Origin: Escherichia coli
GTDB lineage: Bacteria > Pseudomonadota > Gammaproteobacteria > Enterobacterales > Enterobacteriaceae
Assembly: GCF_030013595.1 (NCBI RefSeq)
Contig: NZ_CP122769.1
Direction: 5' to 3' (one strand)
Length of the DNA stretch: 64,000 nucleotides
Part shown: in pieces, positions 56,901 to 59,900 of the stretch
Layout of the letters: every line of letters begins with the position of its first letter
Position numbering within the stretch: position 1 is the stretch's first letter
Position numbers: made by a program

Positions 56901-59900
56901 TCCGTTCTGCACTCGGCATGCTGATGAGCCTGTCTTCAAATATTGAGAGCCTTACCGGTACCACTACCCGCTTGGTAGAATCTGTTAATGCCACCAGCTA
57001 CCCCTCTGTGAGGTAACATGGATGCTTTCAATCTGCTGTGGAGCATTACGGGGGTAGCTTTCATTATCCTTATTTTCGTCGTGTTGCTGTGTCTGTTGGG
57101 TTTTATGACCTCTGCCATAGCGGAACGGCGGACTGCAAAGGCAATTGAATCTGGGCTTCCTGAAGAAGCTCAGGGGCTACTTAGTGATCTCACCTTTCAG
57201 TTGTCGGCTCATAGCACTACTCAGGTTGATCACATTCTCGTAGCCCCACATGGTATATACGTCATAGAGCAGAAAAACTACGTAGGCAAGCTCTACGGTA
57301 CTCTGGAGGAAAGCCACTGGCGGAAATGGACTCAGTCCCGAACCCTCAAGTTGCAGAACCCGTTTAAGCAAAACCAGGGGCACATCAGGGCTATTCAGTC
57401 TGCTCTTAAGGCTAGAGAACTGGAATGTATCAATGTCGTCATCATAAACGGACGTTGTAAGTTTGATGGCATCAAGCCGGAATGGTTATGTATGGGGATG
57501 GACGATTTTATCCATAAAGTCAAACAACGACGAGGGCTACGGTTGTTCACACCGGAGTCTGTTCAGCACATCTGTTCGGTGTTGAAGTCAACAAGGAAGT
57601 CGCCAGGGCTCTATACGGACCTTACTCATATTCACAACATAACGACAAAGTACAAAGCCCCGATGAAATTCGAGCAACGAGTAACATACATTCTGCTCAA
57701 CTTTATCCATTATCTGTGGGCAAGTCTGTTCACTAAGCAGAAGCCTTAGCGCTCTATCATTGGTAAGGCTGTAAAATGTCTGCAAAAGGCCCCATCGGTA
57801 AATTGTTGGGGCTTTTTCTTTGCGTAGTTCTGATACGGTTTATCCTGTGGAGCATTATGGCCACCAGCCAGCTGGTGACTGGCCAACGCTTTGTATGACG
57901 TAGCCTACTCAGGGCAGGCTATTTTAGAGGGACCGATTTTTATCCGGGCTAATTTAGAAAGAGATAATTTGAACTTAGGCGGGCTGACCACCAGCAGAGA
58001 GGTAAATCACTAGCCGGTGATATTGACAGAAGTCGTCAGGGGTTTAACGCCGGAATATTTTGCCAGGCCTCCTGCAAGGTCTGCAAGACTTCTACAAGTG
58101 ATAGTGACGGCCACAGGACTGTTTCCGTCATTATCACTCCAGGTGGCTCGCACTCTACTGGTACCAGAATTAAAACAACACGAGTTCCTTTTACCTGGTA
58201 GGCAAGGTTTACTGCCGGTTGGCGGTAGGAGGCCAGTACACCCTCACCATATTGAGCAGGGTTACTTGCCCAGTTCCGCACCATTGCATACACCTGAGGC
58301 ATATACCGACTATCCAGATCCCCTTTGGGCCGTCTGAACGGCACGATTTCTTCTGAGCGGTAGGTGGTCGTTGTTGTATTGGTTGTCATCTTTGTCACCT
58401 CCCCTGTTCGTCCATTTAGAGTTTTAAGCTGCTTTACACATCACACTCAACTGATTATTTAAGCTGGTCATCGTCTCTGGCCAGCATAGCCCAACCATTC
58501 GACTGGTTTTCGCGGGAGTAAGGATTCATTTCAAAATAACTATCTACCGCGTCGCTGTCCGCAACAGAACTGTTGTTAGCTCTCTTTGAACCCTGAACCA
58601 CTACAGCATCAACCTCTGCGGCTTTCCCGTTGCGCTGTACCAGGATTTTAACCGTCTTGGGCTTACGTCTTGCGAGCAGTTTGTTGGCGATAAAAAGCAC
58701 AACAATCCAGGCCAAAAGCACGTATAAAAATTTATTCATAATGCCCTCCTTTGTATGTGATTATTATACCTGCTTCCATTGCAGGCCAAACAGGTTCGGT
58801 GTATGAAAAATAGACTTCTCTCCGGCGTATAGCAATCTACTTACTGATCTGTTTTCGTATCAAACTGTATGGCATAACCGAGGGGCGTACGTGGTGAGTC
58901 AGAAAGTTACTTTTCCGTAATAGTTAATTTCAGATCCTTCTTCCAGTTACGCTTCAGTATAAAACCGATACCCTCTAATTCAGCATCCTTCACGTTTAAT
59001 ACGCTTCACTTTAAGGCAGGGCTTTTCGGTTGATATGAATTCTTTTTCCGGTTGCTGGACATGGGTTTCATCCTGATAGTTAAAATTGCAGGCTATCAGT
59101 CACCACCACCACCTCCTCCTCCTCCTCCTCCACCGCCACCATCACAACCACCAGCTATGCTATTTTCACCATTACAATCACCTCCGAGGGGGTTCAAATG
59201 GCTGTAAGCGTAAACTGACCGCCGTATGTAGCCATCAGACGAGAATTGGTAACTTAGACGCCCATCTGATATAGACGGACATCTAAGTATGGAATTACAG
59301 GACTGGCGAAAAGAACCTCGTAAAAACTATTCGAATGAATTCAAACTTCGTATGGTGGAACTGGCATCACAACCTGGAGCTTGTGTTGCACAGATTGCAC
59401 GTGAAAATGGCGTCAATGATAATGTTATTTTCAAATGGCTCAGGCTCTGGCAGAACGAAGGGCGTGTTTCGCGGCGTCTTCCGGTAACGACCTCTTCTGA
59501 CACTGGCGTTGAATTATTACCTGTAGAAATAACGCCGGATGAGCAGAAAGAACCTGTGGCGGCCATTGCGCCGTCTTTATCCACTTCCACTCAGACCAGA
59601 GTCAGTGCCAGTTCCTGCAAGGTGGAATTCCGTCACGGTAACATGACGCTGGAAAATCCATCGCCAGAGCTGCTCACGGTGTTGATCCGTGAACTGACCG
59701 GGAGGGGAAGATGATCTCACTCCCATCAGGTACCCGTATCTGGCTCGTTGCCGGCGTTACCGATATGCGTAAATCCTTCAACGGACTGGGAGAACAGGTA
59801 CAACATGTGCTGAATGATAATCCCTTCTCCGGTCACCTGTTTATCTTCCGTGGCCGACGGGGTGACACCGTCAAAATTCTTTGGGCTGATGCTGATGGTC

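Follow-up and report, generated by a model that had tools for sequence, protein, structure and literature searches.

A membrane-anchored NERD-domain protein, a predicted nuclease, encoded at the end of the IncHI2 Tra1 H operon

Background

Why should a conjugative plasmid keep, next to the genes for its relaxase and coupling protein, a gene for a membrane-tethered protein that resembles a nuclease? The question is raised by a stretch of 64,000 nucleotides from Escherichia coli (contig NZ_CP122769.1 of assembly GCF_030013595.1; hereafter the window), in which a small protein with a nuclease-related domain (NERD) is encoded directly behind an S49-family peptidase gene. The window is part of an IncHI2 plasmid: of the 983 plasmid records that match the region, 974 do so at 99% identity or more, and these are typed as IncHI2, MOBH and MPF_F and hosted by E. 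coli, Salmonella, Enterobacter and Klebsiella. Here we identify the gene as the IncHI2 ortholog of R0115 of plasmid R27, which closes the Tra1 "H" (DNA-transfer) operon of IncHI plasmids, describe the architecture of its product and tentatively propose that it acts as a protective endonuclease at the transfer apparatus.

Plasmids of the IncHI1 and IncHI2 groups rank among the main vehicles of multidrug resistance (mcr-1, tet(X4) and the multidrug resistance of typhoid), and the NERD gene belongs to the conserved backbone genes of their DNA-transfer operon that lack an assigned role, together with R0118 and the S49 peptidase gene. Nearly every IncHI-type plasmid examined keeps this membrane-tethered nuclease, catalytically intact as judged by sequence, beside the coupling protein. 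Learning its purpose would tell whether it serves transfer efficiency, defence against phages or plasmids, or something else, would give the abundant family of small NERD proteins with a transmembrane (TM) helix one of its first assigned functions, and could expose a target or vulnerability for limiting plasmid spread. The NERD annotation and the listing of R0115 in the H operon are already public and are not a discovery of ours: RefSeq names the identical protein WP_000338612.1 "nuclease-related domain-containing protein", and the GenBank records of the identical gene as well as the identical AFDB entry use "NERD domain-containing protein". The present finding thus repeats the existing annotation and adds a hypothesis to it.

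Identity of the gene and its place in the Tra1 H operon

The genes are annotated in the order mobI, a hypothetical gene, mobH (traI), traD (traG), a hypothetical gene for a 370-aa protein, a DUF4400/DtrJ-like gene (traJ), the S49 peptidase gene and the NERD gene (Table 1). The counterpart in R27, R0115, belongs to a plasmid of the other IncHI subgroup (IncHI1); it encodes an ortholog with 63% identity and 242 residues, as against 243 here, and likewise lies directly after the S49 peptidase gene R0116 and traJ. The supplementary tables of a published R27 study (PMC7366339) flag R0115 as "(H)" and set it in bold as a tra-operon gene, with the neighbours "R0116 (H), peptidase", "R0117 traJ", "R0118 (H)", "R0119 traG" and "R0120 traI". 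Since R27 has the same order and R0115 carries this flag, the "relaxosome operon" to which the first-pass annotation had assigned the gene corresponds to the Tra1 H operon and the gene to R0115.

By their coordinates, the open reading frames (ORFs) from traI through the NERD gene each overlap the next or lie at most 10 nt from it. The gene had been described as starting 2 nt after the S49 stop codon; a single base (57017) separates that TAA from the ATG at 57018, and translation of the two genes is likely to be coupled, through a Shine-Dalgarno sequence lying inside the S49 gene. In a promoter scan, the stretch directly upstream of the NERD gene showed no promoter-like site. Downstream, a hairpin with a U-tract is followed by genes that run in the opposite direction, which agrees with the earlier placement of the gene as the last of the relaxase and coupling-protein operon. 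The hairpin, present in both the minimum-free-energy and the centroid RNA folds, is a putative terminator; a consensus terminator scan missed it, probably because its loop exceeds the 8-nt limit of that scan, and the z-score of the whole 91-nt stretch containing it is only -1.4.

Published array data from R27 (PMC7366339) support a transcription unit that ends at R0115, because the H-operon genes rise together in an htdA mutant whereas the adjacent R0114 does not. R0115 is derepressed 5.6-fold in this mutant at 25 °C, the corresponding values being 4.7 for R0116, 7.3 for traJ, 8.6 for R0118, 9.2 for traG and 11.0 for traI, and -1.8 for R0114.

A separate observation in the same data set concerns wild-type R27, in which the distal part of the H operon (R0118, traJ, R0116 and R0115) does not respond to temperature, with fold changes of about 1, and the proximal R0121 gives a signal about 8-fold stronger at 25 °C than at 37 °C (1207 vs 145). 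With the distal genes indifferent to temperature and R0121 induced at 25 °C, the R27 H operon may contain an internal promoter, or its mRNA may differ in stability along its length.

Domain architecture, topology and predicted catalytic residues

We are highly confident of the identity and architecture of the NERD protein. The first-pass annotation had proposed an N-terminal TM helix and a NERD-like block and had named a Pfam search as the check; the Pfam NERD model (PF08378) matches significantly, with an independent E-value of 1.9e-21 and 77.1 bits over model positions 3-109 of 111, and the quoted block DHILVAPHGIYVIEQKNYVGKL (residues 71-92) falls inside this match. The helix, too, was recovered: hydropathy analysis gives one strong segment with a Kyte-Doolittle 19-mer mean of up to 3.1 and no second TM segment, the helix at residues 218-239 having a helical moment of 1.13. 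The segment is flanked by no lysine or arginine on its N-terminal side and by three on its C-terminal side (ERRTAK follows). By the positive-inside rule applied to these flanks, the nuclease domain is predicted to be cytoplasmic; and as E36 directly follows the TM helix, the active site would lie close to the membrane surface. An N-terminal TM helix is found in 65 of 68 family members, with more lysines and arginines on the C-terminal side in 64 of these 65.

A sequence search of solved structures returned no match at E <= 1, and fold comparison was used instead. The AlphaFold2 (AF2) model (predicted local distance difference score 96.4, predicted template-modelling score 0.89) contains a helix at residues 2-46, in which the TM segment runs into the helix bearing E36, a β-sheet core at 54-113 and a helix at 115-129, after which come another two strands and four C-terminal helices. 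Its restriction-endonuclease-like alpha/beta core matches nucleases of the PD-(D/E)xK type. The C-terminal extension lies outside the Pfam model, yet is common to the wider family up to about residue 210.

In an alignment of 68 sequences, E84, K86, G90, W101, N114, P115, Q118 and H122 are invariant, and E36, T67, T68, Q69, D71, G79, N119 and H204 are conserved in at least 90%; a set of 12 orthologs and homologs shows no variation at D71 and E84-Q-K86. The near-complete conservation of the putative catalytic set together with Q118 and H122 is the pattern expected of an active enzyme, and the protein is probably one, to judge from the alignment and the model.

This pattern bears on the idea that the protein is a non-catalytic membrane scaffold, with the NERD fold serving as a binding module for a complex of the coupling protein, TraJ and the S49 peptidase. 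The precedent would be SmdA of Staphylococcus aureus, which likewise combines an N-terminal TM helix with a cytoplasmic NERD-like domain, depends on membrane anchoring for its function and acts in cell division with no nuclease activity demonstrated. SmdA differs, however, in being a chromosomal, essential cell-division and morphology factor that matches the Pfam model at an E-value of only about 1e-5 and lacks several canonical NERD residues, whereas E36, D71, E84, K86, Q118 and H122 are invariant or nearly so in the 68 homologs; a scaffold role thus seems quite improbable.

The predicted topology also bears on two of the functions that the first-pass annotation had suggested, namely entry exclusion and fertility inhibition, in which the nuclease would block redundant transfer or inhibit co-resident plasmids. 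In IncHI plasmids exclusion is the task of EexA and EexB; the exclusion proteins known so far work at the envelope and have no nuclease domain. A membrane location and expression from a transfer operon would suit such a function, but a cytoplasmic orientation does not fit surface exclusion, and the NERD gene is set apart by its location in the Tra1 H operon rather than the Tra2 Z operon, to which IncHI entry exclusion has been attributed in a published paper. We regard this explanation as very improbable.

Conservation, synteny and lineage

DNA of the NERD gene is present in 971 plasmid records (the coupling-protein gene traG in 959), covering at least 80% of the gene's length in 958 and being truncated or interrupted in 13; it is at least 99% identical in 969 of the 971. 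By this count the gene is effectively a core gene of the IncHI2 backbone. Beyond IncHI2, orthologs with 63% identity (IncHI1/R27), 46% and 37% identity (metagenomic relatives) and 34% identity (Klebsiella plasmids typed IncFIB/IncHI1B) all show the same DtrJ-S49-NERD arrangement and keep both the reading frame and the catalytic residues. The order traI-traG-R0118-traJ-S49-NERD is kept down to about 34% identity, with the S49 gene always immediately upstream of the NERD gene in the IncHI-type operons examined. The first-pass annotation had allowed that the gene might prove absent or variable in otherwise syntenic transfer operons; it is retained in every syntenic IncHI-type operon examined.

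Between the IncHI2 and IncHI1 orthologs the nonsynonymous divergence (dN) is 0.29 and the synonymous divergence (dS) is saturated, as it is in all ortholog pairs, permitting only the qualitative statement that dN << dS; the protein is under purifying selection across the IncHI lineages. Because of the DNA identity across records, the frame and catalytic residues kept in the orthologs, and a dN of 0.29 against a saturated dS, the reading frame is evidently not a chance ORF. In the comparisons with IncHI1/R27 and with the Klebsiella plasmids, identities are 63% and 34% for the NERD protein, 68% and 37% for TraI, and 67% and 29% for the R0118-like protein. This parallel divergence indicates that the gene has been inherited vertically together with the relaxase and coupling-protein operon.

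Co-divergence with the operon also speaks for an accessory conjugation factor, in which a nuclease situated by the coupling protein would serve to trim the transferred DNA strand, release it or clear it away (for example after aborted mating or at termination), or would raise efficiency in natural hosts and under conditions beyond those of laboratory matings. The fixed position in the DNA-transfer (Dtr) operon with the relaxase, type IV coupling protein and TraJ genes, and the joint derepression in R27, point the same way; and topoisomerase-type C4 zinc fingers, present in some relatives, suggest DNA substrates. A step of this kind is, however, without known precedent in conjugation, and R0115 is reportedly not among the essential Tra1 genes of R27: the abstract of a 2002 study by Lawley and colleagues is said to count nine of 14 Tra1 ORFs as essential, the four on this side being traH, traI, traG and traJ. 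The count of 14 Tra1 ORFs is also cited elsewhere in the literature. Moreover, plasmid Rts1 conjugates without a NERD gene at the equivalent position. An accessory role in conjugation is therefore possible but, in our judgement, doubtful.

In Rts1 the genes after traJ are orf205, dsbC and traL, the S49-NERD pair being absent from this position, and the paper on the systematic deletion of Rts1 genes nowhere mentions a NERD protein or S49 peptidase. The S49-NERD pair is specific to the IncHI lineage. We also considered whether the two genes form a portable module, and rejected this: the IncC plasmid R16a has a 26%-identical S49 homolog in another operon, followed by DsbA (locus L012, 7935-8894), and no NERD gene was seen beside it. 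Two further MOBH plasmids, Vibrio owensii p2 and Pseudomonas aeruginosa p1160-VIM, have NERD genes at different places. The one in p1160-VIM (MOBH/MPF_F; locus L005, 7404-9516) encodes a 29%-identical homolog and lies in the tra region, directly after traU and a gene for an IscB RNA-guided endonuclease.

An exhaustive profile search recovered 4,734 cluster representatives at E <= 1e-3. Since most of these are 200-260 aa long and aligned from residue ~10 to ~210, the combination of a TM helix, a NERD core and a helical extension appears to be a very common small-protein architecture. There is a gap in this search between the IncHI-type clade (E <= 1e-33) and all others (E >= 5e-24). The sampled homologs at 32% identity or less are stand-alone genes, and the contexts of the nearest non-IncHI homologs (P0034-P0036 and P0040) were uninformative, being stand-alone genes or short contigs.

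Comparison with characterized NERD proteins and related nucleases

Functional tests of NERD proteins are very few. One close comparison, beyond R0115 itself, is with the small TM-NERD proteins (PF08378; Grynberg & Godzik 2004), which have the conserved residues and the same layout of TM helix, NERD core and a helical extension reaching to about residue 210; the relatives sampled at 32% identity or less stand alone, whereas the IncHI clade is fixed behind an S49 peptidase gene in a conjugative Dtr operon.

Homologous NERD domains also occur in anti-phage systems: PglW (BREX/Pgl), MAD6 and MkoA of Mokosh have N-terminal NERD domains, and HEC-02, which confers phage defence, pairs an ABC ATPase with a NERD effector (HEC-02B). 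Weak profile matches to such NERD modules cover residues ~35-178 of the IncHI protein, but the defence proteins have kinase, helicase or ATPase partners or fusions that it lacks. Membership in BREX/Pgl, MADS or Mokosh was accordingly rejected, with only the NERD module matching, scores far under the cut-offs and tra genes as neighbours. The NCBIfam scores are 41 bits against a cut-off of 460 for MAD6 and 20 against 990 for PglW, and the PADLOC matches cover profile positions 38-115 of 1403 (PglW) and 15-160 of 1607 (MkoA). In a search of PHROGs the only match of the NERD protein was to a family of unknown function.

Structural comparison of the AF2 model with solved PD-(D/E)xK nucleases gave matches to Can2 and Card1, at the top, and to Bax1, Shedu SduA, McrC, NucS and Hjc, all of which differ in having 6-15% identity, no membrane anchor and other regulatory domains. 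Both Can2 and Card1 reportedly cleave DNA as well as RNA, which counts in favour of the possibility that the IncHI protein is an RNA endonuclease rather than a DNase, cutting single-stranded RNA that enters via the H pilus (RNA phages) or processing and decaying transcripts at the membrane.

The two NERD proteins with a direct functional test, TbLrRP2 of Trypanosoma brucei and ZwsA of P. aeruginosa, likewise point to RNA. TbLrRP2 combines a TM domain with a NERD domain, residues of which are needed for rRNA processing; it is membrane-anchored like the IncHI protein, but its TM domain is C-terminal and its substrate is rRNA. ZwsA, described in a 2026 preprint, is a NERD RNA endonuclease directed against pilus-dependent RNA phages, whose genomes it cleaves in vitro, and mutation of E535, D567, E580 or K582 impairs defence against phage PP7. 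This E/D/ExK tetrad parallels E36/D71/E84-x-K86, the D-to-E spacing being 13 residues in both; ZwsA is, however, a large multidomain soluble protein (VHS-DUF647-NERD-S4) that acts on RNA. Both proteins are distant from the IncHI protein and have other architectures, and the zinc-finger relatives suggest DNA substrates. With the reported sensitivity of R27 hosts to H-pilus phage added to these objections, a dedicated RNA endonuclease appears unlikely.

A possible protective role at the transfer apparatus

The explanation that we favour assigns the NERD protein a protective function. It would be produced alongside TraG, the membrane-bound coupling protein, and TraJ, would have the predicted activity of a metal-dependent endonuclease, and would be dispensable for transfer itself; it is probably not a core component of the relaxosome. 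By cutting DNA or RNA on the cytoplasmic side of the membrane, in the vicinity of the transfer apparatus, it could provide protection against, or surveillance of, nucleic acid that enters through the conjugative channel or stalls at it, such as the genomes of pilus-dependent phages or competitor DNA. Among the points in its favour are the links of NERD domains to defence, through the effector HEC-02B, the anti-phage endonuclease ZwsA and the N-terminal domains of PglW, MAD6 and MkoA. We put forward this protective or surveillance endonuclease with reserve, at less than even chances. A bolder version is that the transfer operon carries its own immunity gene, with a nuclease at the cytoplasmic mouth of the channel that would be produced along with the pili and the coupling protein and would destroy nucleic acid using the pilus or the type IV secretion system to get in, be it from H-pilus single-stranded RNA phages, from filamentous single-stranded DNA phages or from rival conjugative plasmids; this must be considered a long shot. 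If true, it would be the first conjugation-coupled nuclease guarding an entry portal, and membrane-proximal interception of incoming nucleic acid could be the general function of the small TM-NERD proteins.

Several points weigh against a protective function. The 2002 R27 study reportedly found, in its pilus assay, that hosts of wild-type R27 are sensitive to H-pilus-specific phage, so that any protection against such phage would be incomplete. No partner sensor gene is evident, and comparison with known anti-phage systems (PADLOC, NCBIfam) gave no complete match, only the NERD module aligning. Most relatives stand alone in unremarkable contexts that offer no specific pointer to defence. Finally, the R0115 signal in wild-type R27 is alike at 25 and 37 °C (748 vs 881; PMC7366339), and because it is temperature-independent, expression is not strictly tied to active transfer. 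A literature search on R0115/orf115 returned unrelated papers only, and no study of IncHI2 plasmids by TraDIS (the sequencing of transposon insertion sites) or transposon sequencing (Tn-seq) was found.

Features of the locus and further observations in the window

Table 1. Positions in the window of the NERD gene, the features of its product and the adjoining genes and signals
Feature	Position	Strand	Remarks
Membrane-anchored NERD protein, coding sequence	57018..57749	+	243 aa, ATG start, TAG stop; identical to RefSeq WP_000338612.1; R27 R0115 ortholog
N-terminal TM helix, about residues 9-35	57042..57122	+	Hydropathy, flanking charges; predicted N-out/C-in
NERD / PD-(D/E)xK nuclease core, residues 33-142	57114..57443	+	
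Putative catalytic residues	E36 57123-57125; D71 57228-57230; E84-Q85-K86 57267-57275	+	
C-terminal extension, residues 143-243	57444..57746	+	Two short strands, four helices, the last (218-239) amphipathic
MobH relaxase traI	48830-51982	+	ORF coordinates; annotation of identical plasmid region
Coupling protein traG/traD	51982-54066	+	ORF coordinates; annotation of identical plasmid region
R0118-like 370-aa protein	54063-55175	+	ORF coordinates; annotation of identical plasmid region
DtrJ-like traJ	55144-55824	+	ORF coordinates; annotation of identical plasmid region
S49-family peptidase gene (R27 R0116 ortholog)	55835..57016	+	Stop TAA 57014-57016
GAGG Shine-Dalgarno for NERD gene	57010..57013	+	Within last S49 codons; read from sequence
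Putative intrinsic terminator	57784..57821	+	GC-rich hairpin GGCCCCA...UGGGGCC, then UUUUUCUUU; 35-40 nt past NERD stop

The S49 peptidase has its best PHROG match to a phage head-maturation protease (phrog_53, E 5e-33). To judge from the N-terminal charge and the TM pattern, the S49 domain of the IncHI peptidase probably faces the periplasm, so that the membrane would separate it from the NERD domain. The R0118-like protein is kept in all IncHI-type operons examined, with the 67% and 29% identity given above, and matches no Pfam or PHROG family.

An Rfam scan of the window from 44 to 64 kb gave no match. Between the divergent tra operons, on the oriT side and upstream of mobI, a small indel or duplication distinguishes positions 47282-47333 from the reference plasmid: a segment of 52 bp aligns twice, the reference has 35 bp without a counterpart, and Tandem Repeats Finder (TRF) reported no tandem array at this site.

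Downstream of the operon, a low-complexity tract of CAC/CTC/CCA repeats, caccaccaccacctcctcctcctcctcctccaccgccaccatcacaaccacc (59100-59150), gives rise to + strand ORFs of the poly-Pro and poly-His/Leu kind and falls within a minus-strand hypothetical gene of the reference. Just after it, relative to plasmid pMCR_WCHEC050613, an IS66-family insertion sequence of ~2.5 kb (59205-61734) is inserted, with tnpA-like (59289-59714), tnpB-like (59711-60061) and transposase (60092-61705) ORFs; the insertion is accompanied by a target duplication of ~10 bp and interrupts the small hypothetical gene for WP_071447784.1 of the reference.

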